Notes: generated by a model not told the origin, from the sequence alone. A stretch of 64,000 bases of DNA from Euglena gracilis (GCA_039621445.1 CP154954.1:26362954-26426953), one strand, 5' to 3'. Positions 1-61,659 are shown, counted from the first letter of the stretch. Numbers and translations: made by a program.

Positions 1-29
1 GGGGAGAAATTTTTGAATTACAGACCAGG

Positions 30-6310: not shown

Positions 6311-6319
6311 AGACAAGGG

Positions 6320-11767: not shown

Positions 11768-12186
11768 CAGGCTTTTGCTTAAGGACCCCCGGGGGGGGGG
11801 TACTGGCTAGCCAATCGGCTAGAAACTGGAAAAAGTGGACTAGCTAGACCCCCCTCCCCCCCGGGGGGGGGGGGGGGGGCCGGGGGTCCGGGGGTCCCCC
11901 GGACTGAAAAAATGAGGTTTTTAACAGGTTTTTGGCTGATTTTGTTCCAAAAAATCCCAAAAATGGCCAAAAACGGGCATTTTTGGCCATTTTTGGAGGT
12001 CCCAAAAAAATTTTCGGTGCTTCGCGCCGGTCACTGGAAAAATTTTTTTCAACTAGCTAGCCCTGCTAGCAGACCCCCCCCCGGGGGGGTCTGCTAGAAA
12101 ACCCACTAGCCAAATTTGGACTAGCTGCAGTCCAGCCCCCCCCCGGGGGGGGGGGGGGGTACTGCAATCCCTTAAGCAAAAGCCTG
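11768..12186. mobile_element. hAT-like MITE family 3 (CAGGCTTTTGCTTAAGG...CCTTAAGCAAAAGCCTG)
   Basis: 17-bp TIR and 8-bp TSD CTATCCAT. Related copies at about 22784-23142 and 29848-30277. Confidence 0.88.
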
Positions 12187-15884: not shown

Positions 15885-16155
15885 CAGGGGTTTTTTTTAA
15901 GACCGGGGGGGGGGGTGGGGGGCCCCCACCCACCCACCCCCTGGGGGGCCCCCCAGGGGGGGGGTCCCGGGGGACCCACAAAAAATGGCCGAAAAATTGC
16001 GGAAAGTGCTAAAAATGGCATTTTTTTCGGCGCCTGCGGCGCCGAAAAGTATATCCCACCCCCCTCCGGGGGGGACCCCCCGGGGGGGGGGGGGCTCGGC
16101 CGGACCCACCCACCCTACCCCCCCCCCCGGGGGTCCACGACAAAAAAAGCCCCTG
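15885..16155. mobile_element. hAT-like MITE family 2 copy
   Basis: CAGGGG...CCCCTG termini and 8-bp TSD AATGAGCA. Confidence 0.88.
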
Positions 16156-18719
16156 AATGAGCAGCTGGCTGGACCCTCCCGGGGGGGGGGGGTCCGGGGC
16201 TGGAGGAGGCTGGGCTGGGCTGGGTCGATGAAAAACAAAATTTTCTAAAACATTTTTGCCATTTTAGACATTTTGATGGATGGAGCTAGATCAAGGCTGG
16301 GGGCTGTGATGGAGGAAGCTGTGATGAGGGGGGAAAAATGCATGGATAGGTGAGCTGGGCAGCCCAGTTGGCTGTCCAGCCTGCGGACGGCTGGCCCGGC
16401 CTCCGGCCGGGCTGGACCCGACTTTATTTCACTCGACCTCTGGGGGGGGGTGGGGGCTCCCAGCCCGAATTTGGGCTGCTGGCTGGATTTGAGCTGCTGG
16501 CTGGCTGGACCCCCGGGGGGGGGGGGGGGGGTAGGGCACCCTCCGGCTTAAGAAATTCCCTGATCGTGACGTATCGTGGCGTACCAGTGACGTTACGGAG
16601 ATCAAAGATGAACGTCCTTCGCCCCAGAAGGGCCGTGCCTTGGCATTGCCGGAAAACAACAACCAAGGCATCACCTGCCCAACCGGACACTGCAGTGAAA
16701 TAGGAATACTGGGGCAGGGGCCGGGTGCGTGGCCGGACCACAGCCCGGCTGCGCATGGCCGGCTGCGACCCGTGGGCTGGCCCCCTCCCCAGACCACGCT
16801 TCTCTTGACCAACCCCAGGGGGGAAGGGGGGTGCCTTGTGCTATGGGATGCCTGCCCATAGCAGGCACACCCCTTGGGGGGGGGGGTCAGTTTCGGGCCC
16901 CGGTGCCTCCCGGCCAAGGCAAATTTCTTTTAAAAATGGCCATTTTCGGGCCCCGGCGAGCCCGGGCGCTTTGGCGCCGGGGGAGGGGGGGGGGGTGCTC
17001 TTGCACTACCCACCCCAAAACCCGCCCACCCCCCTTAGCTGCACTAAGGCTTCTTGTCTGTTTATGGCCGGCGCTGACTTCGCTTCTGGCCCAGTTTGCT
17101 GCGTGGTGAGTGGCCAGGGACCCCTTACACCAGTCCTCTTTTGTTGCTCCCCCTGGCCGGGTGAGTAACTCTGGTGTAATTCCAGCGCTGTAGGGACATA
17201 CACTCACCTTGTGTGGTTGGTGTGGTTCCCGTGGGTGGGTCTACACCCTTGCGCCCCAGTGCTGCCCTTGCCCTCTTCCCACTTTTCTGTGTGGGGGATG
17301 CATGGTGCAGGCACAACGCCATGACTTGAAAAATTCCAATGTGGCCTCACGGTCCCGCGGCTTAGGTAAACCCGGGTCACCAAGTCTCGGCCTTAGGGCG
17401 GGTGGCGGGTGGGTAGTGTGCTGCTGGGTACCAGTAGTTCCTTACATACTGGTACCTGCGCTCCGTGCCCTGTCCGGGGTTGGTTTGGGCGGTCCCACCC
17501 CCCCCCCCCCGGGGGTCGAAAATGCCCAACCCCCTGCCCCCCCGGGGGGGGGGGTGCGACTTCCCTTAAAAAAAGCCTGCCCCCGGACCATACAAGTTTG
17601 CTGACCCCTCCATCACTTCCACCCTTGGAGGGGGTTTGGCCCCTTTCAGCTTCAGCAATGGCCAATGGCCAATGCTAGCACAAAAGATTGGGGGCAAAAG
17701 AGTCAATTGAACACCCACAATCCGCCTTCAAGACAAGGACTCGCTTTCGGGAGTCATTTTTGAGGTTCATTCTCAGATTCTCACACACTTGGACATTTTC
17801 GACAAATAAACCCTCCTCCGGGGGGGAGGGGAGCCAACTAAACAAATAAGCCAACAAATGAAATGAGGAATCAGGAAAGCACCAGATCAGGAAGAGAGGT
17901 ATATAGTCCAGCTGGAGCACAGGTGATGTGATGTGATGGGGGCATTGGTTGTGAAAGTGTGGGCAGATCAAGCGACAAATGCCGGTTGGTGGCCTGTTAT
18001 TACCTTATGTGCACGAGCCTTTCACCTACTGCTTTGATGTCATCAAATGCCCCAGCAGAAGCGAATATCATACAGAGTGGACTGCAGGGGGCAGCGAGGA
18101 CAGCGTTCCGCTGGTGTGGAAGCGACTCCCACCGGGGTTGGTTTGGCATTTGCACATATGGGCCCCGGGGTAGGGCAGGGAGGGACGGTGTCTGAGCCAG
18201 ACACTACCCACCGGTTCCCCGTGTTTTGTTGTGCGGAGCGACGTCACGCAGACAAGTCCTGGCCGGCCCAGCCAGGCATATGACACCCCCTGTCACCCTT
18301 ATAGTGGCGGAATAGCGTCGCAAGTGACGGATGGGGCCGTTCGGAGGCTAGGCCCACTTTGAGACCTAAGAAGAAGAACAACCAACCCTTCCCAGCTGTC
18401 CAGTCTCAAGCCAGGGTCCCTTTGGTACCCCCCAGAGCAGATTTTTGGGTTTTTGAAGGAATAGGATGAGGGTTGGGCCTAAGTTTAGACTCATGCGCAG
18501 GCCTACCACTAATCTATAAATTAGGTCTAAGAGCCTAAGGCTGACCCCAACCCTGTTCTTTCAATCACCCAAAAATCCCCTCCGGGTCAAAGGGGGTATC
18601 AAAAGGTACACTTGCCAAAAACACACATAATATATATGTGTGTGTACATACATACATATGCATGCATACATACAATCCATATACATGTACATATATGTGT
18701 GTATGTGTGTGTGTATTGC

Positions 18720-25343: not shown

Positions 25344-26479
25344 GCCGACCCCTCCAGGTCCTAAAAAAAACATCTCACACCTCATCCATTTGATATTATG
25401 CATTTGAACCAATTTCTTTAAAAAAGGGTCGGACCAAAATGAGTTCCATCTGCTTCGACAAAACCCAAGTTAAAAAAAGTGCTGGGGGGATCGCTGGGGG
25501 AGGACCTGAACCAAAACCTCACAGAATAAAGAATCACCAAAATGAGAAAATGCCTTGTTCAAAAAAAAAAAAAACCCCAACATTACACCACTTCTCAGAC
25601 GCTCAATCCACCTCCATCATTTGCAGCAAAAGGATGAAATGTGAAATGGGGATTCCAATGTACATCAAAAGGACTGGTATGCTGACCTCCGCTCAGAATA
25701 TCACGGCATCCTCACACACCAACCCCCAAGGGAAACACATCTCTGGATTGCCAATTCTCAGGTAGCAGTCCCCCAATTGTCCCGACCTGTTGACTTCATA
25801 GTGGGCATTTTTTTTAAAAAAAGACAACGTGTTTTTTGAAGAAGAAAAAAAAACACCAAAAAATATAAAGGCACAAAAGGGAAATTTCATTGAAAAAACT
25901 CGTTATGAAACGCCCAAACCATACTTTGAATGCTACTAAGTTCAAAAACTGCCAAAACATGGTCAAAAACACCCAAAAATGCAGAAAAATGCAATTTTAT
26001 GACGTTTTCATGTTTGTGGAAATGAGTTTTTGGCAGAAATTACCTAGAGGTTGCCAAAATGATTGAAAATAAGCATATAAAATTTTTTGTGCAAAACCTG
26101 ATGGGCGTTTTTTTTAACATTGTCAAATTTTAAAAAAGCAAACAAAAAAACAACTTCAAAAAAACAGGCTGCCCACAATGGTTGACTTGTCAAGTTTCAA
26201 CTCCATTTGATAACGAAGGTGTTGTGAGGATTTCATAAATAATCAGAGCTGGAAGCGGAAGCCACCTTGGGGTGAACACCAGATGACCCTCATCCAGATA
26301 ACCCTCATTGCAGGAGGAGGACTCGCAACTGGCATCCAACCTTGAAAAGGATGGTGCAAAATCCGTTGTCTGGGTTTTTTGTTGGAAAAAGTGGCAATAA
26401 CATCTCAAAACAATCACCAATTTGACAAAATGACTGCAATTCCCACAATTTTCCCTCTGCTTTCCCCCACATACCTACC

Positions 26480-26780
26480 CCCCCCCGGGAAACTGTCACC
26501 TGACAGGTTGGCCAGTACCGGGGACCCTGACAACTTCCTATACTGACAGGTTGGCCGGTACCAGGGAACCTGACAGTTTCCCGGGCGGGACCCTGACAGT
26601 TTCCCGGGTAGGGCATTTCAAGGGAAAGTCAATGAAAAATGACCCTGACAGGTTGGCCGGTACCGGGGACCCTGACAACTTCCTATACTGACAGGTTGGC
26701 CGGTACCGGGGACCCTGACAGTTTCCCGGGCGGGACCCTGACAGGTTCTCGGGCATGACAGTTTCCCGGGGGGGGGTAGG
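26480..26780. repeat. Second copy of the GACCCTGACAG-subrepeat TIR element
   Basis: See 22310-22600. TIR CCTACCCCCCCCCGGGAAACTGTCA and its inverse. Confidence 0.75.
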
Positions 26781-28369
26781 TATTTTTCCTCTTTCTTTTC
26801 CGCAGTTTTCCTTCAATTTTTCTCAAGGCTTCCCTGGAAAATGGAGGGCAATGCAAAATGGGTCACTTTCCGGAACACACTGATTTCAGAAATAATTATA
26901 AATAATTTGTGATAGTTGGCAAACTTTGGCAAATTGGCAACAAAATATCAAAAATGCACCGGGGTTCCCTCATGAAACGCTCAAGGCATGGCCGGAACTC
27001 ACCTCGCCATCCGTTTCAGGTTCATGCGGAAAAATTGCGGAAAAGCTTCGGAAATGGACAACTGCAGATATTGCGGGAAAATTGCGGTTATCAATTCCCC
27101 ACCCCTGCATTTGAACCAACTGAATGTGACCCGAGAGAGCCAAAATCCAAAGCCAAAATTGCAGCTTCTTCACTCCACTCATTCCACTCCACTCATTCCC
27201 TGCCCAAGCACCCAAGAGTCAAAAAATTCCACAGAAGGGCCTCATCATGGCGTTGATTTTTCTTCAAGAAATTCCGGGAGTCACCCTGGCGGAAGATACC
27301 TCGGGCCAAGGCAGGGCTTCCAAACCCAAACATTGGCACTTGGGTCTGCCTGGGCGCGGCAGGGGCATACGCCGCGTGGGAGAGAGGGGTCGAGTTAGGC
27401 CAGATGCCCATCTGTGGTTGCGACAGGGTGCAAATCTGCTGTTGGCTCACCAAGAAAAAGGAATGCTGAGTTCAAGCCATTTTTTCTGTGCGAGCTGAGG
27501 GGTTGAAAAAAGGTGCTGGTCCAACCCGGGGTGGGAGGGGGTGCAGGATCCCACGCTGCCAGGGTGGACCAGGGTTCGATACAAGGGCAGGTGGGGGGTC
27601 GATAAGGTGACCGAAAATTTTCACCTCCCAAAATCTGCAGAATGCTATTTTGGAGACTTTTGGGGGAAAAAAACTGTCAAAAATGCGAAAAATTTTCAGT
27701 GGAAAGCACCAGAAGGGGAAAAAACCGGAAGGAAAAGACCTTTTGGGGTGGGTCCCGGGCAGGGGTTTTTTCAAGACAGGGGGTGTCCGCCCTCTCACCT
27801 GGTCCAGGAGGAGGGCACCCCTCCACCGAAGCCCCTCACACCCTCCTTGCACCCTTGCACCCTACACCCCACTTTTTACACCCTCCTCGAGGGGCTTCCT
27901 ACTCTAAACAGTGTCAAAAGGCGCAATAGACGACCAGAGACCGTGGAAAAAATAAAAATTCCACGACACACTCTTCTGATACCTGATTTGGTGGGCACCT
28001 CATACAGAAGGTGTTGGAACTTACAGCCAGAATTGATTTTTCTTCACATTTTTCGGATTTTTTTTGGAAACTGCGTTTTCTTTTGGCCCAGTCCAGTTGG
28101 GTTGGAACTTTTTTGAGTCAAAAACCCAGGTCAAATCCAAAAATACCTCAAACAGCCAAAAATAATAATTTTAGGCCATTTTTGCCCTTTTGAAAGAAAA
28201 AAACAATTGGCGATCTGTGTTATTTTTTTAGGTCCAGAAAGTCCTGTGCTCTTTCTTTCATTGAATCTTTCATTGAAAAAATAAAAAAACGTTTCCATCA
28301 ACTGAGGACAAAAAGAAGCCAAGGACGGACCCTTTTTGAAACGACATTACAAGTTTGCCCCCCATTGAG

Positions 28370-28478
28370 GTTGCCTGTCTGGCATCTGTTTTGCTGCAGG
28401 AAGCCGGGCTGCTGTTCGCTGGCGAGAAAGGTGGTCGGCCAGCTTGGTTAACGACATGACAGCCGCTTCATTGTCCTC
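28370..28478 (-). CDS. Downstream exon of the CCCH zinc-finger gene (3' boundary uncertain)
   Basis: Continues in frame (EDNEAAVMSLTKLADHLSRQR) once 28479-29501 is removed. Confidence 0.6.
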
Positions 28479-29501
28479 CCAGCCAGGCTTCTCTTCTCTG
28501 ACCCCAGGTGGTCCTTGCCCAAAGCACCACCCCCAGGGAGATGCGCAAAACCCCCCTTCTCTGTTTTTTTTTGGTGGTGGCACGTTTTCGGCGATCCACA
28601 GAGACGATGCTTTGCAGCCGAATATCACAAAAAACACACACAAAATTGAAAAGGGGGCTGATTGGCAGTTCCTGGTCTGAGAGTCCGTGCAGGGGAAAGC
28701 AAAAATCTCAGAAACCTCTTTCATGGGTTTTTAACAGTTTGAAAAACGAAAATTATGGGCCGGTGTTTTTTTTTTTCCACAGAAGGATTGCAAATAGTAG
28801 GTGTTTTCGGAGTGTCAGCGTGTCCGAGTGGTGTGCGCACTGGTTTCAGGGCTCACAACCAGACATCGGGGAAGCCAGGGTTGGAAGACAGGCAGACGGA
28901 CCTTTTCAGAAAGCAGAAAGAGGGAAGATTGTACTTTGTTTTTCCTTTGAAAAATAAGGGATGTAATACAATTTCAGTCGAAACATTTGTGCAAAATTGT
29001 GTGAAGGAGTCGGTGCAGTTTGTGCCACTCTTAATGAAGTTTGTTGGTTGGGCGCGTGTGGTCGGTTGATGCTGCCACAGCATCAAGGGAAATGTGTCAG
29101 CTTGTCTCAGGGCGAAGCGGGACAAAAAAAACATGGACACCTTCGTTGCTGTGTCCATTTGCTTTACCCCCAAAATGCATGTTTGAGATTGAGCATTGTC
29201 CAGGCTTCTGCTTAAGGGTTCAGCACCCCCTGGAGGGGGGGGACTCAACTGCAGCTTGTCCAAATTTGGCCAGTTGGAATTTTGTCACAAAAAAAACCAG
29301 CCCCAACCGAAAACACGAAACAAAGGCGAGAATTGCACCAGAAAAGAATATCTCTTTGTTTGCCTGACCTGAACATAGATGGTGCCTTACCTGAACATTG
29401 ATGGTGCTTTGACACTTCCCATCCCAAAAACCGACCCCCTCCCAGAAGAGGGGAAACTCTGAAAATGCCAGTGGCGGGGCCACATTCAAAAAAGCCTGCT
29501 C
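28479..29501 (-). other. Putative non-conventional intron retaining MITE termini (CAGGCTT...AAGCCTG, 28484-29498) and a 7/8 TSD
   Basis: TSD CTCCCAGC (28476-83) and CTCCCTGC (29499-506). No GT donor at the junction; excision restores the frame. Confidence 0.7.
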
Positions 29502-29675
29502 CCTGCAGCGCATTTCCTTAGCCCCATGGGCATAGACACAGGTGTCCCCGTAAGGGCACTTCCCAGTCTCCTTCCAATTGCGACACAGGCGCGTCTTGTA
29601 CTTGTTGTGGTCCACGGAGTGATCATCGTGATGGGTGCCCGAAACCTTGGCGGCCTTTGCATTCCTCTTGGCCTT
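29502..29675 (-). CDS. Exon encoding a TIS11/ZFP36-type CCCH zinc finger (RNA-binding protein)
   Basis: [27 protein letters not shown] fits YKTxL C-x8-C-x5-C-x3-H. The 5' boundary is inferred. Confidence 0.88.
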
Positions 29676-32161
29676 GGTCTCAGGGTTGGATACGCCCAAT
29701 CCAGAAGAAACCAGGATTCTTTCCTTGGAAAAAAGAGGGTCAAAAATAGGGGGAAACGGCATTTTCTCCTCAAAATTTTGGCTTAACAATCTCAACCCAG
29801 CTGGATTGGAATTTTTTCCGCCAACTTTTCAGAAGCTGGTTGGACTCCCTGGCTAGCCAATCGGCTAGACACTGGAAAAAAATGGACTAGCTAGACCCTC
29901 TCCTCCCCCCGGGGGGGGGGGTCCCCCAACTGGAAAAAATTTTCCTCCGGCGCTGTGCACCGAGGTGGAAATGAGGTGTTTAATAGGTTTTTGGCTGATT
30001 TTGATCCAAAAAATTCCCAAAAATGGCCAAAAGCAGGCATTTTGGGCCATTTTTGGGGGTCCCAACAAAAATTCAGTACTTCGCGCCGGTCACTTGGAAA
30101 AAAAATTTCCACTGGCTAGCCCTGCTAGCAGACCCCCCCCCCCGGGGGGGGGGGTCTGCTAGACCCCCCGGGGGGGGGGGTCTGCTAGAAATCCCACTAG
30201 CCAAATTTGGACTATCTGCAGTCCAGCCCCCCCCCGGGGGGGGGGGGGGGTACTGCAATCCCTTAAGCAGAAGCCTGGTCAGCCCCTTCTGGCGGCTGCA
30301 CCACTGCACTGTGATTGGCAGGCAGGTGACTGTCAGAGGAAATACATGCTTTTTTCTCTAGACTTCGTACCCAGTTTTTGGTTCCAACGAAGGGGAATTC
30401 CCTGGTTTGACATGCGCCTCTGATGGTGGTGTTCTTACGACTCGGGGGTCTGGATCATGCTGTTTTTACCAACCCCAGGGGGACGGGGGAGGGGGGTCCG
30501 GAGTGCCTGCCCAGGCAGGCACTACCCCCCCCCCCGGAGGGGGGGGTCGGATTTCGGCCAGTGCCCAGGCACATTCCTTTGAAAATAGGCCATTTTTGGC
30601 TCCCCGGCGCCTTTGGCGCCGGGGTTGTGCCAGGGCACTTTTGGCAGTTTGCCCTACCCCTCCCCCCGGGGGGGGAGTTGGATTTGGAGTGCCTTGGAAT
30701 GCCTGCCCAGGCAGGCACCCCCCCCCGGGGTGGGGTCGGCACCCGACTAAAAAAAACAGCCTCGTCTGGACAAACATTCACTTAGTGACCTGGGGGAGCA
30801 TTCTTCCCAGGCCCAAACCCACCCACCCACTTTTTTTTTGAAAAACCACCCACCCACCCACAATCACCATGGGTCAACCACTCACCCACCCACCCAAAAT
30901 CCAGCCAAAATTGGCCGAAAATGCTGGAAAGAATTCTCTGACCCTCTGGGCTCCCAGATCTGGCCTGGGGGGGGGGGATAGTGGGCCGACCCCAGGTTGG
31001 CCCACTACGACCCCAGGGGCGCTGGGGTCGACCCCCCAGGCTGTGTAGTGGGGGGGGGGGGTTCGGTCGGCGTTGCTTGCGCACCTGGGGCGCCAGCTGG
31101 GCTCCCTAGGGGTCACCTGGGAATTGCCCGCGTCCCAGTCCCCGTTAGGTGGGCGGCCCCTGTGCAGCTCTGCCATGGGCTCCCTCAGGTGGCCGCTGTG
31201 GTTGCAGCCAGGACCCGAGAGTGACCCGCCTCTTCCGCGGTGGTGCCTGCGACGACACGGTGGATGAAGGGGCGCCGAATTGCCGGCGCCGTGGGCGAGG
31301 TGGCCCCAGCTGAACTCGTTGTCACTTCGGCTGGGCGCACGGGAGGAGCCGTCCTCCTGTGTTTCAGGGCTGGCTCCCCGGCAGCTGCCCCTGTGCAAGA
31401 GCATCTGAACTCGATGTAGCTCCAGCGGACGGCAGCGCTGGTGCGGCCTGTGATGCTGGACACACAAGGGACAAAAAGTAGGCTTTCCATCGTCCCGAAA
31501 AATGGCTGAACCACGTTTCCAACGTGCCGCCGGAGGGGGTGATGACTTTCACAGGCCAGCGCACCTGATGGGAAGGTGGGAGACCTGGGTGGAGAGGGCA
31601 CTGCATGTCTTTCGGGACGAACCAGGCCTGAGCTTGGAGTCTTGCTCCGCTGTGGTTTTCAGCCGCCGTGAAAAGCCTGCCAACAAGGAAGAGGATCTAT
31701 CCCCAGCGTCGCTGGGGAAGGCGCAGCCATGGTCAACCTCCCACAAGAGGAGAAGGGCCATCCCGGAATCGCCCTCCTCGGGTGCCACCGGCTTCAGAAA
31801 CCGGTGGCACCGCAGCCAGGCGGCCGGGGTGGCGTTTGCTGCGGCTTTTGCACGCCCGCAGTGCTGGCACCACCTGTTGGCTGGAGGCACCCCCCTGCCT
31901 TGGGAACTCGGGACAGCAGAGGGGACAACGAGGGCGGGGGGTGCAGACACAGGAGGCCCAACACGCAGCCAATGGAGCCGACACGTTGCTGCACATTCAC
32001 CCCTGGGGTTGGAAGGACTCTCCGGTGCTGCGTTCGAAGAGAGCCAACAAGACCTCCGCCGAAGACCCAGCAGCTGACGGGCAGGTCTCCGTCTCCTCCT
32101 GCAGTAAAAAGACCAGGCGCTCCCGCAGCCACTTCAGGTGAACGGGCCCACACGATGGGAC

Positions 32162-32812
32162 CATGCTTGTGCTTACCGACCGGGGGGGGGGGGGGGGGGG
32201 AGGGTTCGATATAAGGACGGGGGGGGGGGGGGGGGTCGGGGCCCCCCCCCCTGGGGGCCGGGGGGGGGTGGGGCGGGGGGGGGACCCCCCCCCCCACCTA
32301 AACAGGTGCGCGGTCAGGGTGGCCGAAAATTTTTGACCCCCCAAAACGCCCAAAAGTGCCATTTTGGGCACTTTTTGGGCAAAAATGTGCCAAAAATGCA
32401 AAAAATTTTCGGCGCGAAGCGCCGGAGGAAAAAATTGACCCTTTTTTGGGGGGGTCAATTTTTGCCCCCAGGGTCGGTCCGGACCCCCCTTGCAGGTGGG
32501 GGGGGTGGTCCGGACCCCCCCTGCGGGCCAGGAGGGGGGGGGGGGGTGGGGGGGGGGACACCCCCCCACCTAAACCATGTACGCCCTCCTTATATCGAAC
32601 CCTGGGGGAGGGGGGTGGGTGCTACACGGTGCCTGCCCCCCAGGCACACCCCCGGGGGGGGGCAGAAAATTTTCATTGAAAATGGCCTTTTCCAGGCCCC
32701 AGCGCCGAAGGCGCCGGGGCCAGAGGGGGTGCCCCCCAAAACCCCCCCGGGGGGTCGGATCGGGTGCTATGGGGTGTCTGCCCAGGTAGGCACCCGACTA
32801 AGCACAAGCCTG
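32162..32812. mobile_element. hAT-like MITE family 4 (CAGGCTTGTGCTTA TIR) with a nested family 1 MITE
   Basis: 8-bp TSD GATGGGAC; nested copy at 32200-32604. Confidence 0.85.
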
Positions 32813-33098
32813 GATGGGACCTGGGATGATGGCAAGGGAGGCGGGGAGACCACATGAAAAAAAGGCATTGCGCACATGCGCAACAGTTTTACATTGCGCA
32901 TACGCGCAATGGATAACTGTTGTGCGGGCGCAACGTTTACCAACAGCAATGTGCAGTGTGTCGGGGGGCCCTCTCTTCCCAGATGGTGCTACACAGGCCA
33001 GGTGAATTTTGGCCCTTTTTGTTGCTTTTTTAGGCTCTAAATATTTCCGTGTTGCCAACGGAGGTGTCCAGAGGTATATAAACCAGGTTTTGAATAGT

Positions 33099-34025
33099 GC
33101 TGAGCTCTTAATAAGCGCGCACCCACCCCTTCATTGACCACTCCATACATACCGGCCCACTCCATGGAGCTCTTTTGCCTGAAATCCATGGGTTTTGTGC
33201 CAGAAACGGGGGCCTGGCGGGTCGAAAAACGCTCATTTTCGGCTCAAAAACAGTTTTTCTGGGTCCGGGAGGCCAAAAAAACATCGTTTCGGGCAAAATT
33301 TTTTTTCGATTGTTTTCGACTTTTTTGGCCGAAAAAGTCCAAGTCGGACAGTGGAAAAAGTGTACAAAATGGCCAAAATTGGCCAAAAAAACGCCCGTAT
33401 CTCGGGCTGGGCGGGGAGTTGCGGGGAAACCAAAATCCCAGTAGATAGCGTTCCAAGGGCTTCAATTCAGGTCTCACGACATTTCCTTTGATTTTGCATC
33501 ATTTTCGAGAAATTTTGAAAACATCGATTTTTTTTACCCCCCACCCCCCCCCCCGAAAACGGCCTAGTCGGACAGTGGGGAAAGTGTACAAAACGGCCAT
33601 GGAGTTGCGGGGAAATCAAAATACCGGTAGATGGAGCGTTCCAAGGGCTTCAAATTAGGTCTCCGGACATTTCCTTTGATTTGGCTTCATTTTGGAGATA
33701 TTTTGAAATTTGACATTTTTTTGGCCGAAACGGCAGAGTCCAAAGGGGGGGGGGGGCTTATCCAGGGGGGGGGGGCGATCCTACCCAGTTTGGACCCCTT
33801 CGCGCGTGAATAACTCGGGCCTGGCGGGGAGTTGGGGGTCAAACCCAGGTGATTCGGAAACTAGAAATCCAGTCGCTCGCGACTGAAAAAAAAAATCCGG
33901 GAACCGGACCGGGATCATGGTGATAATCCGTCGGTTCTCCTGGTGGCCCCGACCCGGGGGGGGGGGGAGGGGGGTTTCGCCAGGTGTAAGCTTCGCTCTT
34001 ACCCATAAAGGGATAAGAGCTCAGC
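33099..34025. mobile_element. Possible non-autonomous TIR element with an internal duplication
   Basis: 12-bp inverted ends GCTGAGCTCTTA / TAAGAGCTCAGC; 33343-33520 resembles 33567-33720. Confidence 0.45.
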
Positions 34026-35440
34026 GACCCCCCCCCAAATAATACCCCCCCCCTTGGGATCCGACTTCGGCCGCCGAAATAATACTCCCCCCCCCCGGTT
34101 TCGGGCCGAAACCGGGCGGGCAGACACCCTCTGCCTGTCACAACTCCGTCACCGTGAGGCAGCGCTCCGGTGGCAGGTGCGAAGGCTGACGTTGTCCCAG
34201 CACCCACTCCTGGGGTACCAGGCCCAGACCGTCCGGGACACATTGTGGGGCGGCGGCGATCAGCTCGCAGCAGCGACTCATCCACTTGGCCAGGCGTTCT
34301 GCGAGCAGGCAATGCAAACGAGCGAGGAAGCGCTGGGCATCCGATGGGGACAAGGGGCAGGCAGGTGGGACTCCGGCAACAGTGCAGCTGCGAGGGGGAT
34401 GTGGAAGGACGCCACCCAGTCCTCCGGCGGCAAAGGCAGGGAAGGCGGCATTGCTCACCTGCAGTGGACCAGTGGACAGGGGGGGGGGATGCGCTGGACG
34501 GCCCTCGGAAAAAATGCGCAAAAAAATGGGCAAAAAAATGCGCAAAAAAATGCGCTGAGTTTGTACATTCCTAAGGGAAAAAGGACTGAGAAAAATTCCA
34601 ACAATAAGCCCAAAATTAAACCAAAATGACCAAAAACAGCCGAAATGAAGGCATTTTTGGTATAAAAAAAATGCACGAGCAAGGCGTCACTCTCTGTTCA
34701 CCATAACCGACAATGTCAGCCATGGTGCCCCTTACTTGTGACCAGGGGAGTAGAATTCGATGTGGGGTCTCTGAAAACCCTAATGTCCTCATCATCATTG
34801 GATGAGTACCCACTCATCACCCAAGGGTTTTTTCTTGAGGCGGGTCCCTTGGGTGGGAAAAAAAGTGCGGAAATGGGTTCGTTGGTTATACAAATGGGTT
34901 AGTTGAACGTGGGCAAAATTTGGTGAGCATGTGGTTTGGTTGGTGTTGAAGAACGGTGTTGAAGAACACCAATGTCGAGTTCGTTTTTGACATACGGACA
35001 ATGTGGACAACATGGACAATAGGGAAAAAATGCCTCCAAGTGTAAAAAAGGTGGGAAAATGGAAAAAATGCGCAAAAAAATGCGCATTTTTGAAAAATTG
35101 ATAAAAATGCACAAAAAATGCACAAAAATGCGCAGCGCATTTCCCCCCCTGACCAGTGGACCAGTGGATGATGTGGACTATGTGGACCAGTGGACCATAC
35201 AAGGGCAAAGGAGGCTGCACAGGAGGCCGAGCCCGTGGCAGGGCACCCAATGAGGACATGGACATCATCTTACACTGGCGACTCACAGCACAAGCATGCA
35301 GGGGAGGGAGCTCCCAACCGGTGTCAGTGGCGACGGTACTGGGTGGCCAGACAGCCCGTCCGCACCTGGCCACCCACTTGATGGCTGCTGGAGTTGCTCG
35401 GTGCGTGAACCTGGTGGGAATGGCCACTGCCCGCCGGAAG

Positions 35441-37985
35441 CAGGGTTGCTCAATTAATCGCTCAAAAATTGACGACCGAACAATTAATCGGGGCGAACGA
35501 TTAATCGATTTAATCGATTACACCTAGCGTCCGAAATGTTTGCCCACGGCCGGCAAAAATATTTGCCCAAATCAGTCAAAATTTTCGCCCCTCAAAAAAA
35601 TTTGCCCAAAGCTCTCAAAAAAATTTGCACTGCGCCGCCAAAAATATTTGCACTTGCTCAAAAAATATTTGCCCTCCGTCATTTAATTTTTGCACAATGA
35701 AAAAAAGCCTTACATTGGACAATGGGAAAAGATCCACGCCGATTGAACGTCTTACGACGCATTTTTTTAAAAAAAATCTGAGTATTTGAGGCGCGGGGGC
35801 TCAGGACGGAGTCTGCATCTTTGAAGCCGATGAAAAACACAAATGTTTGTTGTGTTCAATCACGATGTTGCGCACGTAGAGCCGGTGAACACCCTATTTG
35901 TCTAAAGCCAACTGGGAGGCCTTGTGCAAGCAGCCAAAATGGCCAAAATGGACGGACACAGTTCAAAATATGGTCAGAAAAATGACATAAAAGGCCCAGC
36001 ATTTCCTAAACTTATTAAAAATATTTGAAAACATCCCAAAAAATGTTTGACGATCTGCCAGAAATTTGCCCAAAATGAAGCCTCAATGGATTGAACACAA
36101 CATCAAAAAATCCATGATGACCAGGGGTTTTTTTAGTCGTGGACCCCCGGGGGGGGGAGGGGGGGGGGAGGGGGGGTGGGTCCGGCCGCGCCCCCCCCGG
36201 GGGGGGGGGGTCCCCCCGGGGGGGATGGGATATACTTTTCAGCGCCGCAGGCGCCAAAAAATGCTATTTTTAGCACGTTTCGCGATTTTCGGCCATTTTT
36301 TGTGGGTCCCCCGGGACCCCCCCCCCCCGGGGGGCCCCCAGGGGGGGGGTGGGGGGGGGGGACCCCCTCCCCCCCCCAGGGTTCGCTCTAAGGACAGGTG
36401 GGGGGGGGGGCGGTCCGGACCCCCCCCCCCCCTGCGGGCCAGGAGGGGGGTTGGGGGGGGGGGGACCCCCCCCCACCTAAACAGGTGCGCGGTCAGGGTG
36501 GCCGAAAATTTTTGACCCCCCAAAACGACCAAAAGTGCCAGTTTGGGCACTTTTTGGGCAAAAATGTGCCAAAAATGCAAAAAAAAATTCGGTGCGAAGC
36601 GCCGAAGGAAAAAAATGACCCTTTTTGGGGGGGGGTCCCGGGAACCTCCCCGAGGGTCGGTCTGGACCCCCCTGGCAGGTGGGGGGGGGGGTCCGGACCC
36701 CCCCTGCGGGCCAGGAGGGGGGGGGGTGTGGGGGGGACACCCCCCCACCTAAACCATGTACGCCCTCCTTATATCGAACCCTGCCCCCCCCCCGGTATTA
36801 AAAAAAACCCCTGATGACGACCATGAATTGACCCCAAAAATTCTAAAATTTATTGCAAAAAAAAAATGCCTGAAATGGCAGAAAACCAGCCAAAAATGCA
36901 AAATATTTGGGGTTTTGATGCTGCCCACATATGCGGTGCTTTTCTTTGCCAAAAAATCATCACACTACCTCCCCCCCCCCTTGTCGTTGACACGCCAATG
37001 TTCCAGGAGAGTGCCGTTGACTCGGGGGGTGTGTCAACGACACGCCATGCCAATGTCACTGTGATTCAATAGGTAGTGTTCCAGAAAAGTGTCGTTGACA
37101 CGGGGGGGGGGGTGTCAACGACACGCCGTGTCAACGACAAGGGGGGGGGGGAGGTACATCACATCGCTATGTCTCTCCTTTCTAACATTGAGCGCGACAA
37201 ACGACAAACACTCAATGCGCTTCTTTGAGCAGTGCATTTGTGATGGTCAAGATTTTTCCCAACCATGAATGAATGCGCAAACTCCAAAACCAGAAATTGG
37301 TATTTGGAAATGTCCAAGAACTCCTGTCTTTGATTTTTCTCTATACCACATGTTGGCGTTGGAATTGTATTGTCCATTTACAACGATTTGTATTCTAACG
37401 GCTCAAAACGGCTTGAAACGAACCAATGTAACTCCGTTGTCAAAGGTTGGAATGAAGTGGGACAAATTCTGAGGTCAATGCGCTTTTGCAGCAATGACAT
37501 TTTCATTCAAACCATTCATTTCCGCTTTCTGAACCATTTTGGTCGGTTTTGGGGGTTCGAACAAATCATTATTCAAGACGCAGCATTTTGGACGGAGACT
37601 GCGTTTTAAGACACAGACCTGATGCCTGAAGTCCGGCGGCGTAGACGCACACCCTGTCCTGAGTCCCTGCACCTAAGGCGCGGACTTAAGGGCAAAAGTG
37701 CAAAACACCTGATCCGTGTGCAAAAAATTTCGGAACGTAGGCAAATATTTTTGAGATAAAATGCCAAACGTTTTTGAGATATGTGAACAAATTTTTAACA
37801 TGTGCAAACATTTTTGAGATAAAGTGCAAAAATATTGACCGGAAGTGCAAAAAAATACGGTGTGGAGTGCGAAAAAATCGGGATGTGCGGCATTGAAAAT
37901 CGATTAATCGATCACCGGACGAACAAACGATGATTGGGGGGGGTCTTGACCGATTGATCGACTTTCGATTAATCGAACAACCCTG
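35441..37985. mobile_element. Non-autonomous hAT-like element (CAGGGTTG..ATTAATCG TIR) carrying nested MITEs
   Basis: TIRs and subterminal GATTAATCG motifs resemble 59453-60114; TSD degenerate. Nested elements at 36122-36813 (TSD ATGA(T/C)GAC), 36377-36783 and 36969-37154. Confidence 0.7.
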
Positions 37986-38316
37986 CCGGGAAACGGCGAT
38001 TGGGGTGGATGCCGGGTAACAAAATGATGAGCGTTTCTCCCAGGAGACCCGGCACCTGAGCCACCAGGCCCAGGCGAACGCTGCGAGGAGGTCGTAGATC
38101 GTCAACCCTGAGGCGTCTTGCAGGAGCAAGGGATTGTCAAAGCATGGGGGGGGGAGGAGACCATGTTGATGCGGCCCGGCCAAGGGCAGCCTCCTTGGCC
38201 CAGAAGTCGGCGGAGTCGTTCCCCACTGCCTTGGGATGTCCAGCCTCGATGGCGGCCGTGTCATGCGCCCGCACCTTCTCCAGGAGTGGCGCCGTTGAGA
38301 GGGAGGAGGCTGCGGC

Positions 38317-38958
38317 CAGGCTTGTGCTTACCAACCGGGGGGGAGGGGGGTGGGTGGGTGCTATGGGGTGCCTGCCCCTAGCAGGCACACCCACCGGGGG
38401 GGGGGGTCCAAAATTCTCATTGAAAATGGCCTTTTCAGGGCCAGGCTGTTTTTTACCAACCCTGGGGGGGGGTCCGGAGAGCCTATGAGTGCCTGACCAG
38501 GCAGGCACTACCTCCTGTGTGCACTGTGGCTGTTTTTTTTTGGTGCCTTTTATCCCTTCTTCTGGCCTGGCGCTGTTGTTCGCCTCTGGCTCTTTTTGTC
38601 TGTGTGCGTGGAGGTGGCAGGCACTACCCCTCCGGGCCTCCGGGGGGGGGTCGGATTTCGGCCTGTGCCCAGGCACATTCTTTTGAAAATAGGCCATTTT
38701 TGGTTCCCCGGCGCCTTTGGTGCCGGGTCTGTGCTAGGGCACTTTTGGCCGTGCGCCCTACCCCCCCCCCCCGGGCAGGGGGGGTCCGATCGGGAGTGCC
38801 TTGGAGTGCCTGCCCAGGCAGGCACCCGACTAAAATACAGCCTGTTACCCCCAAAACCCTACCCCCCCGGGGGGGGTCAGATCGGGTGCTATGGGGTGCC
38901 TGCCCCTAGCAGCCCCCCCCCCCCCTGTGGGGTAGGCACTCGACTAAGCACAAGCCTG
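38317..38958. mobile_element. hAT-like MITE family 4 copy
   Basis: TIR CAGGCTTGTGCTTA and 8-bp TSD GCTGCGGC. Confidence 0.88.
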
Positions 38959-41900
38959 GCTGCGGCGATGATCTGGCACACTACCGGGGGGGGGGGGAAT
39001 TTTGTGCCAGAGAAATTTTGCGGCAACAAATTTCGCGGACGAAAAATTTCGCGGGATTCCTTAAAAATATCCGGAAATATTTTGCGGGATTTTTTTCTGT
39101 GAAGCAAAAAAGGGAAGCCTTGAGCACCTGAAAGGAAATACATAGACAAAAATTTCGCGGGATTCCTTAAAAAAGACTGGAAATATTTCGCGGGATTTGC
39201 TTCCGCGAAATTGTCTGTGCAAATTTTCTCTAGGGCAAAAATTTTGTCCCCCCCCCCCCGGTTGGGAGGGGAGACTGGAGGACACACGGAAGGGAGAAGG
39301 GATGCCCCCCTGCCAGCGTTTGGAGGGAGGTCAGTAAGTCTGTCAGGATGTGCGGGGCGGAGGCCTCCGCCGCCATGCGTTGGGCCACCAACTCGCAGAG
39401 GGTGGAGCTCAAGGGACCTGGAACAGAGTGAGGGCAGACTCGGTGTCTGGGGCCCAGACCGCGGCTCCCCCGGAGGACGCTAAGGAGTCATCTGTGAAGA
39501 CGGCACCCGGAGGGAGGAAGTCATCAACCGGTATCAGGACTATCTGTCCTGGGTAGGCCTGCTCGGGGCAGAGGCGCGGCCAAGGCTGCAGACCGAACAA
39601 GCGCAAGCCTGGTTGCGCACCACACGCCATCCCACTGAGAGGGCAGAGCGCAGAGCGGAGGATGTTTCTGCCCAGGTTTAGGGTGATGGCATTCGTGAAA
39701 AGTGGTCGGAAAGAAAAGAAAAAAATCGTGAAATTTCGTGAAATTTCAGGGGCCGGAAATTTCAGTCACCACCCTGCCGAGGTTGGGCCCGGGCAGGCGA
39801 CTGCCCGGTGGACGAAGCCTGAGATGGCAAAGGTGTTGCCCAGGGTCTGGAGCCATACCAGTTGCAGAAACCGCATGGTGGCGACCGGGTATGCCACAGC
39901 AGATTCTCCCAACGAGCCCCCCACTACCGCAGCGGGGAGCGCCAGGTGTTCAAGCGCAGGGGCTTGTGACCCATGGCCGCCACCCCGGCGGACATGAGCC
40001 GCTGGGGGGCCATCGGCTGGAGATCCCAGATCTGGTACACACCTGTGGGAGGACAGTGGCGCGCCACAGGAGGGAGCACAGCGCCTTCAGCCGGCGCAGG
40101 GTCTCCAAGGCCTTGCTCAGGCGAGGGGCGAAGTGCACCTCCGAGGCCTGGGGCTCTGGCAAGCCCAGCGCCACACCGACAAAGCGAAAACCTGAAGAGG
40201 AAACAATGTCCAGGTCGCCCACCTGGAGGTGTGCACGAGGTGTGCCCGGATGAGGGCCGTCATTTCTGTGGCCGAGGCGGCAATCAAGGCCACATCGTCC
40301 AGGAAGCTGATGGAGGGCAGTCGGATACCCGCCACCGGCACGCCCATATCGCTGGCAGCCGCCCAGCGGTGGAAGGTCTCCAGTAGAATATTGAGGAGAT
40401 CCGGGCTGTGTAGTGGGCAGACCCTGGGGTCGGCCCACCACACGACCTCACCCCCCCCCAAAAAACACACTGGAATTTTCTTGTGCGTTCAATCCAAGCC
40501 ACTCAAAGAACGAACATTTTGGGGAGGGGGGGCAAATCCCTTTTGTTGCTCAACTGTTCGAGGGCCCAAAATAACAACATCCCTTGTGTTACCAAGTCGT
40601 GTTGGGGGTGGGTGGGCGGGTCCAGACGATCGATTCACTTAACCTGGAGGGGGTCTTCGAGAGCAGGTGGTTTGGCTCCACCAAAACACATTCTGCAATA
40701 CGTTTACAGTTGGAAACAATGTTGTTTGGATTGCGCCGGTAGAAATAAATCCAATCCTGTTTACTTTCAATGGACGGGTCAGCCTGCTTCTTATGGCTGA
40801 CAAAGAAGTCCTTTGGCGGCATGGTCTGGATAATATCTGGAACCGCAATGGCAGCATAAGGGCTGTCCATAGTTGCCAACAGACCATTTTTGAACAACTA
40901 CGCCCTCCTTACGGAGTTGAGGGTTTTAAGGGGTTAAGGTTTCTGGCGCCTTCCAATGCCCGGCGAGGACAGGGGGAATCCACTTTGAGGGAAAACAGCC
41001 TGTTCAATTCAGGGGCAGAGTTGAAGCTGTTCGGTAAACTCAGATACCCCACACTGCCAGGGTTGGAAGAGCATGACCCAAAGCCACACCTCCCCACAAG
41101 GAGGGACGAGGGGTCAAAAAAAGGGCAAACTGAAACTTCACAAAATCAAAATTAGTTTGGGCCAGGAGTTGGGGTGCCCTGGGGGCAGGTTGCGAAGCGC
41201 CCTCGGGCCCCCCTTAGACCTTCTTGGTCTGAAATTGTGTTTGGCGAAGATTTAACCCGGCGTCTGACACCGGGTTCATGACAGAACTGGCGTTCCCCCC
41301 ACTGGTTTTAGGAACGTTGGTTCTGTCTGTGAGAAAGGGGTGAGGAACGGCGGTTCTGTTTTAACCCGGCGTTCCTAACGCCGGTTCTGTCATCAATAAC
41401 AAATGTCATCAAAAGAGCCAAAAAAAATGCCCAAATTGGTTATTGAGGTCCTGATATGACCGTTTCAACCATGTAGTAGAATGCAATTTGCCATTTGGGG
41501 ACTACCAGGGTGGTTATCCAATTTTGGTGAAAAATTGTTCCTGTTTTAGAATATGGGTACCGAGCATGGAAAAATCTGACTACCTCCACTGGACGTCTGT
41601 TGAAAAGAGATGCGCTCGCCATCGTCGGATCGACCAGAGTCGAAATTTGTGTTTGTTTTGATGTTTGGTTTTAGAAGCATAATGAACCATACAGAAGCGA
41701 GTTAGCATCTGTTCTTTGCTTTCGGGGGGGCGGACCACAAAAACGGGGGGAAAGGGAGGGTTTGTGTTCTGCAGCACATTGACAACTTTTTTCAGGGCAC
41801 TCCCCAAGAAAGGTTCCCCATCACATTTCTGGTTTTATGATGAGCCATGTCAAGCAGACTCCCGCAATGCTTGATTGTTGATTTAAAAAAACAACAACAG

Positions 41901-42234
41901 GGAAAGGTGTGGGCATGATCACTGCACCCATCGAAGGGAGCTCCAAAGGTCATTTCATCTTTGAGCCGAAGATCTACAGGGCACGCCTTCCCGACCAATG
42001 TGGGCTCACTTTTATCAATGCTCTCCAGCCAAGACTCTGACAGTACAAAGCAGTAAACTCATACCCCCCTCAAAGTGTCCCCCCCCCCAAACAGGCCAAA
42101 AGTTTTGACACATTTTGGTTTACCCCTTCTCAAAGTGGCCATTTTCCTTCGGCGCCTTTGACGCCAAAGGCCCCCCCAAATTTGGGTCAAACACAGGATG
42201 CCGGTTGGGCTTGAATTTGGGTGAGGGGTTACTA

Positions 42235-42416
42235 CCACCCCCCCCCCCCTTTATTGTCCCCCCCCCTTTATTGTCCCTGGGCCCCGGCCGACGGGGGGTT
42301 TTTTTGGCCCGGCCAATGAAATTCCTTTGGTACCCCTTTATTGTCCCCCCCCCTTTATTGTCCGGTCGGGCCTCCCGGGGGCAGGTCGGTGGGACAATAA
42401 AGGGGGGGGGGGGTGG
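42235..42416. mobile_element. TA-flanked (Tc1/mariner-like) MITE
   Basis: TA-CCACCCCC..TTTATTGTCCC / GGGACAATAAA..GGGGTGG-TA. Confidence 0.75.
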
Positions 42417-43080
42417 TATTATGGTCAGTTTTCGACTTACGTCAAGGAAGGGTTGATACAGGGTACCCTAACCCCAATCCCCCGCAAAAGGTCGAAAGGG
42501 CACGTCAATTATTAACATGCCCCCCCCTTCCTGCATGGCCCCGGGACCCTTTACGGCCCAATGGGGGTGTAGGGGACGGGGGGGGGACGCGGGGGGGGGA
42601 CGCCATTTTTGGGACGGTGAAATTAGGCGAGAAAATCTTTGCCAAATTAGGATTCTACCACAACAAATTAGGACTAACACACCCTAAATTAGGAATCACC
42701 CACCACAAGTTAGGAATCACCAACCCCAAATTTGCCTGAGATTAGGAATCAGCCTCCTAAATTTGGCTGTCTCGAGAACAAAATTTTGGTTCGAAAGTGG
42801 GACGCGGGGGGGATGTAGGGGGGGGGGACGCGGGGGGACGTGGGGGAGACACCCCCAATGGGAGCAGTACGGGGGGCCCGGTACTTGTCTGTTAGTCGAT
42901 CCACAGCAGTGCATCAAGTCTGTTAGTCGATCCACACCTATTTTTGGCCTACTTTGGGTCACTGATGGACAGGGAAAGCTCCTGTGCCGACACCAGCCGT
43001 GCCTCTGACCATCGACCCAAAAATAGGTGGAGGTACCTAAAAATAGGTGTGGATCGACCTGTTTTGCCGTGGATCGACTA

Positions 43081-43313
43081 CCACCTCCCCCCCCCTAATT
43101 GACCCCCCCCCTAATTGACCAAACGCCCCGGAGAAAATTTTTTCCACCCCCCCCCCTAATTGACTGCCCGGGGGGATTCTGTGCTGAAGTACCCCCTAAT
43201 TGACGGTACCCTCCCCCCTAATTGACGCCCCCCCTAGTTGAACCCCCCCCCTAATTGACCAAAAGGGGGGTCCCGTGGAGAGGTCCCACGGTCAATTAGG
43301 GGGGGGGAGGTGG
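43081..43313. mobile_element. TA-flanked (Tc1/mariner-like) MITE
   Basis: TIR CCACCTCCCCCCCCTAATTGACC. Excision with a TA TSD restores GGATCGACTAACAG, the inverse of a motif at 42889. Confidence 0.8.
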
Positions 43314-44664
43314 TAACAGGCACTTTTTATAAAGAACTTCCGAAAAAAGTGCTCAAAAATCGCAAATCCGGGAAAAAAAATTTGGGGTCGAAAATTGGTG
43401 CTCCCGAAAATACGGGAGGAGGTGGGAGGGGTCGATGGCTGTTTGGCCGATTCCCTTGCGATTCACCGTGCCACCCCACCTGGACACACACACTGGGATG
43501 ATAAAAGAGGAGCTTGACTGCCTTGGTCCACAAGTCAGTTGGAAGTTCAATCTCAGTGTAAATGGAATTTGGAAGGGGCAAAAAATCATCAAACTGAGGG
43601 GATGACATTGGTTGCCTGCAGACAGGGTGAATGGATTGTGGCCATGCCAGTTCAGAGGCGTTGGAGCTTTTGCGGCACAACCCATGTGCACTTGGACGCA
43701 AAGTTCAGGTGAAAATCTTGATTGAGACCATTGGCATATTGACACTTGGTGTGAAGCAACAAAAATTTTCTTCTTTCTCGGAAAATCTGCGATGATTTCT
43801 TCATCCTTGAGACAAGAGGTGGGGATGGGATTTCAAACTTTTTTTTGGTGCCTCCGGTCGATCCCACACACAGTTTAGAGGTATGACCTGAGGGCGGAAA
43901 TTTCGGGCTGCGTGGTCTGGCGATAGGTAGGGAAGTCCTAACGCGCGAAGGCCCGGTTACCGCCGTGTGATGCTGTCTCATAATTAATGGCCCCCCCATC
44001 TGGAACATTTGGAACCTGTCCCCCACATGTGCTCCCCCTTGTGCCCTGCCCTGTGCCCTGCCCAAGCCAAAGGGGGGAAGGGGGGGGGTCAGGAGGTATT
44101 TGAGGTCACAAAAAAGACAAGACCCCCCCAAATGCAAATGCAAAAAAATGCACCACAACACCCCAAATCCAGAGGATTCTGGAAAAATTAAGGACCAGGT
44201 CCACACTGGAAAAACAGCAAGTGGCACAGATTGTGGAGGAAAGAAAAACAGCACAGATGGCTGCACAAACCAGGGCTGACAAAACCCAAACCCCAGCAAA
44301 GCTGCCCACAAACTCGGTGACAGCCGCAGACGACTGGTCTGTGCTGTCCTCGACGGATGCCTCCATCTGGGGGGAGTGGACTGGCCAAAGAAAAAAATAC
44401 AAAAAAGCCCTCGTGGACCAGTGGTTGGAAAACATCCATATCACTGTGGCCCCCCTTCCCCCTCACCCCCCCGGACGCACCTGGTCTGACCTGGCGGACG
44501 ATGAGGTCCAGCTCCTCCTGTATGCACCTTGTGCTCCGCTCCAGGGCGGGGGAGTCCGGTGGAAGTTCCTCGCCAAATCATGGGGGACAGGACACACCCT
44601 GGGCACCCACAGGGCCGGCCCCCCCCTCTGGCCGGCAGACCTGTGGCTCAATCACCACACGAAC

Positions 44665-44718: not shown

Positions 44719-45294
44719 TCTTCCGGGGGGCCAGCCGGCCAAATAGCCCGTCTGACAACGGACGAGATATGGGACGAACTTTACTGGAATGGCCAGCGTT
44801 GGAGGTGGCAACGTCTGCGCACCCCGGCCACAGCGGGCCCATCCTCTGGGGCCCCGGCCCAGGTCGGCCCAGGGACCGAATTTGCGAAATGCCGCCTGTG
44901 CTTTCAGCACATCAACCTGTCGTCTCTCTGGGACATGCAGTCCCACCACTGCCAGGCAGGTTGACCGCTCGGCAACATCTTTTCGCTCACCACAGTCCGG
45001 GAAGACAATTGGCGTTGGGACCTACACCACCTGGAATCCCTACCAAATGGCGAGTGGTGGCTGGTCCGCTGCAAGGTCTGTGGATGGTCGACAGAAACCC
45101 CTTACCCGGCACCCCTACTGAGCCACACGCAACTGTGTACACCACCGTCTCTCTCTGACTTGGAAAGCGACTTGGAAGGCGACGATAAATACGACGAAGC
45201 TGATAACAAGCGTGCGGTCTACTCACACGGCCACACGGAGGTCACCGCCGCCGGATCCAACAGCCCGGTACCTTGCTCGCCTCACTCATCCACC

Positions 45295-45348
45295 GGCAGG
45301 GGCGATGACATCCTCACCGATGGAGACGTCGAATGCAATCCGGGCCCC
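45295..45348 (+). other. 2A motif 2: GRGDDILTDGDVECNPGP
   Basis: Matches D(V/I)ExNPGP; conserved in copy 3 (61709-61732). Confidence 0.9.
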
Positions 45349-45394
45349 AGTAGTGCCACACGACCCCCTGAGGACCTCCCACGCCGAGTACCAC

Positions 45395-46287: not shown

Positions 46288-46338
46288 GGACGGGGTAGCC
46301 TCCTCACCTGTGGGGATGTGGAGGGGAACCCTGGGCCG
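46288..46338 (+). other. 2A motif 3: GRGSLLTCGDVEGNPGP
   Basis: Matches D(V/I)ExNPGP; identical peptide in copy 3 (62659-62709). Confidence 0.9.
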
Positions 46339-61646: not shown

Positions 61647-61659
61647 CACAGCTCCATTT

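Follow-up and report, generated by a model that had tools for sequence, protein, structure and literature searches.

Within the 64-kb stretch of Euglena gracilis DNA analysed here (hereafter the window), a CCCH zinc-finger gene on the minus strand is interrupted by 1,023 nt (28476..29498) that form a genuine euglenid nonconventional intron, a conclusion about which we have practically no doubt. The splice was observed in RNA, its borders lie outside the GT-AG type, the published euglenid splicing code is matched in full and the two intron ends have the potential to pair. An origin of this intron from a hAT-like MITE appears plausible, with a rough probability of 65%, because the intron carries a 7-nt terminal inverted repeat (TIR), is flanked by 8-mers identical at seven of eight positions and lies among elements with perfect 8-bp duplications.

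RNA evidence for splicing

Four public runs were mapped to positions 27000-32000 of the window, the RNA runs stemming from three studies. One run consists of raw RNA-seq reads (X21), two of contigs whose RNA label is a guess (X1 and X2), and the fourth is DNA-like (X20). Position 28475 is joined to position 29499, across a gap of exactly 1,023 nt, in 215 reads of X21 (91 + 124, with 107 start places) and in one contig each of X1 (depth 678) and X2 (depth 2,872). The same joint is absent from the DNA-like run, the contigs of which cross both borders (27782-28604 and 29244-29876). In X21 the depth is 0-0.15 in the five fully intronic bins (28503-29337) compared to 82-163 in the bins of the flanking exons, so that intron retention is negligible and splicing is efficient. 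No back-splice joint was present among the joints listed for the mapped runs.

A first-pass annotation, made from the sequence alone, had described this segment as a non-GT-AG intron composed of an element plus one copy of its target-site duplication (TSD), 1023 nt in all, the removal of which yields an in-frame product of 31 letters, and had suggested RNA-seq across the junction as a check. The spliced joint found in three studies bears this out: the reads and the two contigs support the intron, no permitted register has GT-AG borders, the skipped length agrees to the nucleotide and the predicted peptide is present in the protein P0003. The description of the ends and of the flanking 8-mers proved correct to the base. 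Of the outcomes that the annotation had named as speaking against it (retention of the segment, use of GT-AG sites or an untranscribed pseudogene), none was seen; the intron depth in X21 is close to 0 and the gene is transcribed.

At 28397, 29616, 27311, 27320 and 27389, the exons of the window differ by single bases from all three RNA runs, which represent another strain or allele than the assembly. The change at 28397 (C>G) replaces Ala by Pro, the same residue as in P0003.

The zinc-finger gene and its other introns

The gene was mapped to 26309..43608 (minus strand) from a tblastn search with P0003, from junction scans and from the joints and loose ends of the RNA runs. It was resolved into eight exons and seven introns. 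Exons 1-4 (43608-43528, 42040-41914, 41078-41004 and 40872-40763, minus strand) were placed by mapping of P0003, and the first three junctions of the gene, taken from protein alignment only, are accurate to about 2 nt. The exon upstream of the intron under study (29499..29675, minus strand; 59 codons), delimited by RNA contigs and reads, encodes a C-x8-C-x5-C-x3-H zinc finger. It matches Pfam zf-CCCH (PF00642) with E=4.2e-13 and 49.3 bits against a cut-off of 20.5, in agreement with the earlier assignment to a CCCH zinc-finger gene, and is 98% identical to residues 130-190 of P0003. The downstream exon (28365..28475, minus strand; 37 codons, beginning DNEAAVMSLTKLADHLSRQR...), defined by RNA joints and tblastn, has no Pfam match over its 37 aa. 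It is followed by an exon at 27417-27291 and by another that runs from 26309 to lower coordinates, both on the minus strand and placed by RNA joints, loose ends and P0003.

P0003 (270 aa, label eukprot:EG_transcript_18911) was found by a protein search with the zinc-finger exon; it holds the spliced product and has a single CCCH finger. Its label presumably refers to the Euglena gracilis transcriptome. Two further proteins, P0001 and P0002, are read-through ORFs of unspliced contigs. The more distantly related homologues P0004 and P0005 show no gap where their alignment crosses the splice junction. A metagenome scan with alignment A1 gave 157 pattern matches; three of these loci (L001-L003) were considered as orthologues and rejected, as they are unrelated tandem CCCH proteins that have the finger alone in common.

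A GT-AG reading is possible for none of the seven introns. The CAG/CTG code fits three of them, namely 28476-29498, an 11-kb intron and a 131-nt intron at ~41005-40875. Among the other four, one shows CAC/GTG in the same geometry and three show no fit.

Several features of these other introns were recorded. In the 835-nt intron at ~41914-41080, a perfect inverted repeat of 8 bp (CCACACCT/AGGTGTGG) contains CAC at +4..+6 and GTG at -8..-6; this CAC/GTG pair is outside the published C-D-G/C-H'-G rule, and the junction was taken from protein alignment only. The nonconventional intron at 29676-40762 (minus strand; 11,087 nt) is dense with MITE-like elements. Its two ends (CAGGATTGGAT, and CAGGGTTGGAT as the reverse complement) share 10 of 11 positions and resemble the CAGGGTT(T/C)GATA termini of the elements 8375-8769 and 36377-36783; the 8-mers that flank the intron agree at only 4/8. 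The 947-nt nonconventional intron at 28364-27418, documented by the RNA joint 27417->28365, has no CAG/CTG fit and includes a nested MITE end (27569-27724) similar to 36376-36615.

Intron borders and the published splicing code

Read on the minus strand, the upstream exon ends ...CGC TGC AGG GAG and continues into the intron as CAGGCTTTTTTGAATG; the intron terminates in GAGAAGCCTG followed by GCTGGGAG, after which the next exon begins GAC AAT GAA (the contiguous intron end before this exon reads GAGAAGCCTGGCTGGGAG). The first TIR, CAGGCTT, occupies 29492..29498 and its perfect 7-nt partner AAGCCTG occupies 28484..28490, both on the minus strand; on extension, 9 of 11 positions match. Flanking these TIRs are the two copies of a TSD-like repeat. 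The upstream copy, GCAGGGAG (29506-29499, minus strand), constitutes the last 8 nt of the upstream exon, and the downstream copy, GCTGGGAG, lies at 28476..28483 (minus strand). The copies agree at 7/8 positions, or with one mismatch as CTCCCAGC/CTCCCTGC on the plus strand, and neighbouring MITE-like elements have perfect 8-bp TSDs. For a pre-defined pair of 8-mers, at least 7/8 matches are expected with P ~3.8e-4 under equal base frequencies. The element alone measures 1,015 nt, the element with one 8-mer 1,023 nt, and no coding capacity was detected in the 1,015 bp.

The ambiguous letters GGGAG allow the intron to slide by at most 5 nt, up to 28481-29503, which gives six registers with the borders CA..AG, GC..GA, AG..GG, GA..GG, GG..TG and GG..CT. 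None of these has GT/GC-AG or AT-AC borders. The RNA reads do not discriminate the code register at 29501 from the other five; the register that matches the published code is 28479-29501, with GAG-CAG at the donor side and CTG-GCTGG before an exonic G at the acceptor side.

According to the account of Nomura et al. (2025; PMC12501133), the code reads 5'-N3CDG-/-CH'GN5-6 before an exonic R and was set by knock-in genetics. The donor spacer is given there as strictly 3 nt and the acceptor spacer as 5 nt, although 6 nt are also accepted; the first base of the downstream exon is a purine, and no preference is reported for the last base of the upstream exon (PMC12501133). The same source states that CAG/CTG and pairing of the ends are functionally required for splicing, and that in E. 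agilis 71.8% of the introns are nonconventional and 84.4% are 'slidable', with short junction repeats (PMC12501133). In the register 29501..28479 the fit is complete: N3 is GAG, CAG...CTG follow, N5 is GCTGG and the exon starts with G. The downstream 8-mer is thereby divided into GCTGG, the intronic spacer, and GAG, which is exonic. CAG thus stands at +4..+6 and CTG, within the 3' TIR, at -8..-6, as the first-pass annotation had placed them for its chosen register, and the rule that it stated for euglenid introns is in print, as far as the consulted text of PMC11282704 and PMC12501133 goes. Its reservation about a G on both sides of the junction is no obstacle, since the code demands only a purine at the start of the downstream exon, here G.

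A conventional spliceosomal intron with non-canonical sites, or a segment of an untranscribed pseudogene, is extremely improbable. As the intron length is divisible by 3, retention would leave the frame unshifted, and nothing else was found that would favour such an explanation; the absence of GT/GC-AG and AT-AC borders from all six registers speaks against it, as do transcription and splicing of the gene in three studies and a stop codon that ends the read-through frame of P0002 92 codons inside the intron.

Pairing of the intron ends

The intron ends are predicted to be able to base-pair and would thereby draw the junctions together. A duplex of the two 30-nt ends has a calculated energy of -32.5 kcal/mol compared to -17.4 +/- 3.4 for shuffled ends, and none of 500 shuffles reaches the native value. 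As RNA, CAGGCTT forms part of an extended 11-bp helix with two G-U pairs, and a second helix joins GGCCCC to GGGGUC. When the whole 1,086-nt RNA is folded, the terminal helix has an ensemble probability of ~0.38 and enforcing it costs 2.5 kcal/mol; when only the MFE structure of the complete intron is considered, the 5' end is paired to an internal site and not to the 3' end.

MITE-like elements in the window

All CAGG...CCTG pairs 60-3,000 nt apart were collected from the window, and 100 shuffles served as control. Flanking 8-bp repeats with no more than one mismatch accompany 19 of the pairs, compared to a mean of 1.44 (maximum 4) in the shuffles, and seven pairs have a perfect 8-bp repeat where 0.03 are expected. 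Among 353 pairs with at least 9/12 TIR matches, perfect abutting repeats of 6, 7, 8, 9 and 10 bp were counted 2, 2, 7, 1 and 0 times, respectively, with a sharp maximum at 8 bp.

Two of these elements share the terminal heptamer of the intron and serve as comparators (strand unassigned). The first, 419 bp at 11768..12186, has a 17-nt perfect TIR (CAGGCTTTTGCTTAAGG) and a perfect 8-bp TSD (CTATCCAT). The second, 642 bp at 38317..38958, has a 14-nt perfect TIR (CAGGCTTGTGCTTA) and a perfect 8-bp TSD (GCTGCGGC) and sits in the 11-kb upstream intron of the same zinc-finger gene. As claimed from the first inspection, the intron termini therefore match those of MITEs in the window. In total, CAGGCTT starts two perfect-TSD elements and four solo termini, as it does at both intron ends; the heptamer as such shows no enrichment across the window (17 sites compared to 12.95 expected). 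One solo MITE terminus is nested in the intron itself (29197..29281, plus strand; CAGGCTTCTGCTTAAGGG...). It starts with CAGGCTT at 29201 and is 75% identical to 30281-30189 and 12186-12102. The DNA-like depth in the bin 29171-29337 is 445, compared to ~50 for single-copy sequence.

A young MITE acting as an intron was sought by removing nine elements with one TSD each in silico, and a long frame resulted only at 8375-8769. This element is 395 bp long, starts CAGGGTT..., has a perfect TSD (CATAGGGC) and breaks a long minus-strand frame. Its excision leaves 245 + 259 codons open, both limited by the 900-nt flanks, and thus at least 504. The flanks were rejected as host exon, as they look like a retroelement pol ORF that by eye resembles 5586-6647; neither the flanking ORF nor the ORF at 5586-6647 has a Pfam match.

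Origin of the intron

MITEs with an 8-bp TSD are conventionally placed in the hAT superfamily (PMC7385995). hAT-superfamily MITEs are non-coding, shorter than ~1 kb and have short TIRs next to 8-bp TSDs; the intron resembles them in its TIRs (7 nt perfect, ~25 nt imperfect), its 8-bp flanking repeat (7/8), its 1,015 bp and the heptamer common to the perfect-TSD elements of the window. Unlike such MITEs, it is single copy in the window, interrupts a coding exon and is lost from the transcript by splicing. The reading of the first-pass annotation, in which a hAT-like insertion would have created the intron, is supported in part: the TIR and the 7/8 8-mers speak for it, and the lack of a second copy and of a transposase in the window speaks against it. 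Apart from the 85-nt nested MITE end, the 64 kb contain no further copy of the intron, and the depth of the DNA-like run at both intron ends (~55-59) is at the single-copy level. Past the first 9-11 nt, the intron ends show no similarity to the MITE TIRs. The 64 ORFs of at least 170 aa in the window include no transposase ORF, only RVT_1 and Dam-like matches. Further points against a transposon origin are the lack of CAGGCTT enrichment, the four of the seven introns that deviate from the CAG/CTG code and the internal pairing of the 5' end in the MFE structure.

It is also conceivable, if unlikely, that an ordinary nonconventional intron arose without any transposon, splicing having selected the inverted ends, and that the 7/8 repeat came about by chance or through another mechanism of intron gain, for example repair of a staggered break. 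As CAG/CTG and pairing of the ends are functionally required (PMC12501133), selection may either have preserved the inverted repeat or given rise to it, and junction repeats are common in E. agilis, where 84.4% of introns have short ones, according to the same source. The single-copy state of the intron and the divergence of its ends from the MITE TIRs after 9-11 nt agree with such an origin, as does the absence of a TSD from the gene's two further introns that fit the code, at which the flanking 8-mers match at 4/8 and 1/8. Selection for CAG/CTG and pairing would not, however, explain the direct repeat: the code leaves the N3 and N5 spacers free, and a 7/8 repeat beside CAG/CTG in the exact 8-bp register (P ~3.8e-4) is therefore not accounted for by the code. 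Moreover, the extra TIR letters GCTT match a MITE terminus that is present six more times in the window, where bona fide CAGG-ended elements with 8-bp TSDs are abundant.

If the intron descends from a transposon, hAT is likely to be the superfamily concerned rather than another one with 8-bp duplications. A source in a non-hAT group such as Merlin or P-like elements is quite improbable. For E. gracilis, two Merlin families are described whose TSDs are 8 bp long and whose DDE motifs are intact (PMC8101967); Merlin is the only DNA transposon superfamily that we found reported for this species, and no hAT transposase occurs among the 64 ORFs of the window. In the parts of that report consulted, Merlin TIRs have a conserved terminal 5'-GG, whereas the window elements have 5'-CAGG directly against the TSD, and the E. 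gracilis Merlin alignment in its supplement ends ...CAAGTAC before variable flank and not ...CCTG (PMC8101967).

On the preferred hAT-like reading, the intron would be a descendant of a non-autonomous DNA transposon with CAGG...CCTG termini and 8-bp target-site duplications, and the insertion would be old, as the TSD has one mismatch, the TIRs have diverged, repeats are nested in the intron and a sister copy is missing from the window. As for splicing, pairing of the inverted ends (CAGGCUUUUUU... with ...AAGAGAAGCCUG and GGCCCC with GGGGUC) can bring the junctions together in the pre-mRNA. The nonconventional splicing machinery would then cut 3 nt 5' of CAG and 5 nt 3' of CTG, before a purine, and ...TGC AGG would be ligated to GAG GAC..., with the loss of 1,023 nt that the RNA runs document. 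Since the spacers add up to 3 + 5 = 8, splicing would take out the element together with exactly one copy of the duplication and restore the frame that existed before the insertion.

Relation to earlier work

The intron type and the idea of a MITE origin are already known, and the locus is a well-documented further example. A MITE-like origin of euglenid nonconventional introns was proposed in 2013, at a time when, in the words of that paper as consulted, no transposable elements were known in euglenids (PMC3935182). The proposal was repeated in 2018, 2024 and 2025, and according to a 2024 review (PMC11282704) nonconventional introns possess TSD-like repeats as well as TIRs, the latter with CAG/CTG at +4..6 and -8..-6, so that the present intron adds an instance and not a new idea. 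The origins of these introns, for which the locus matters, were still called unclear in 2025 (PMC12501133). The contribution beyond earlier print is the spacer arithmetic, in which 3 nt and 5 nt equal the 8-bp duplication. A literature search, confined to the text of accessible papers, found no named Euglena family with CAGG...CCTG termini and 8-bp TSDs and no statement that 3+5=8; in the text that was available, the word 'duplication' has 0 occurrences in PMC12501133 and 'target site' has 0 in PMC3935182.

Compared to the euglenid nonconventional introns described so far (Milanowski et al. 2014, PMC3935182; PMC12501133), nothing essential differs in the accounts consulted. Non-GT-AG borders, CAG at +4..+6 and CTG at -8..-6, spacers of 3 and 5 nt, the downstream purine, 'slidable' junction repeats and pairing inverted ends are common to both; here the direct repeat (7/8) is longer and the TIR exceeds what the code demands.

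Introners offer a second comparison. They are reportedly transposon-derived spliceosomal introns (reviewed in PMC11282704; see also Huff et al. 2016). The geometry would be alike, with a DNA transposon spliced out together with one TSD copy and the mRNA restored. Introners recruit the GT-AG spliceosome, whereas the intron described here has non-canonical borders and no GT-AG/GC-AG register, and no multi-copy family of it emerged from the window. Merlin of E. gracilis, too, shares the 8-bp TSD but differs in its termini, which begin 5'-GG where the window elements begin 5'-CAGG (PMC8101967, as consulted).

A more general reading, for which we consider the case evenly balanced, is that the nonconventional splicing code of Euglena mirrors at the RNA level one transposon superfamily (CAGG...CCTG, 8-bp duplication, 3 + 5 = 8). 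If so, an exonic CAGG...CCTG element in either orientation, with a purine at position 6 of the duplication, would be an instantly and precisely removable intron. The segment at 28476-29498 would be an old example that keeps both hallmarks, and the perfect-TSD elements of the window would represent the still-mobile source. The tolerated 6-nt spacer would then correspond to a 9-bp duplication, as at 34477-35151. One intron proves little; together with the surrounding CAGG...CCTG elements and their 8-bp duplications, the locus allows the MITE hypothesis to be put as a numerical prediction, open to a test on the whole genome. Should this prediction hold, Euglena would possess a dedicated RNA excision system that neutralises one transposon superfamily.

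Other elements of the window

The element at 34477-35151 (CAGG...CCTG, 675 bp) has a perfect 9-bp repeat (ACCAGTGGA) and is the sole case of this length; the repeat would match the tolerated acceptor spacer of 6 nt. A nested pair was also seen, in which a 271-bp CAGGGG(T)n element (15885-16155; TSD AATGAGCA) lies within a 756-bp CAGGGAATT element (15807-16562; TSD ATCGTGAC), both TSDs being perfect 8-mers. At 29839-30840, the summed contig depth of the DNA-like run is ~1e4-5e5 compared to ~50, which marks a very high-copy repeat cluster rich in C/G runs (PPPGGG-type ORF noise).

ORFs with RVT_1 matches are located at 346-2982 (minus strand) and at 3767-5611, 44965-49319 and 57890-63303 (plus strand), two of them with Dam-like methyltransferase matches, a pairing that presumably points to DIRS-like retrotransposons. 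An ORF at 54598-55215 (plus strand) contains three DUF3432 repeats (E=3.7e-16).
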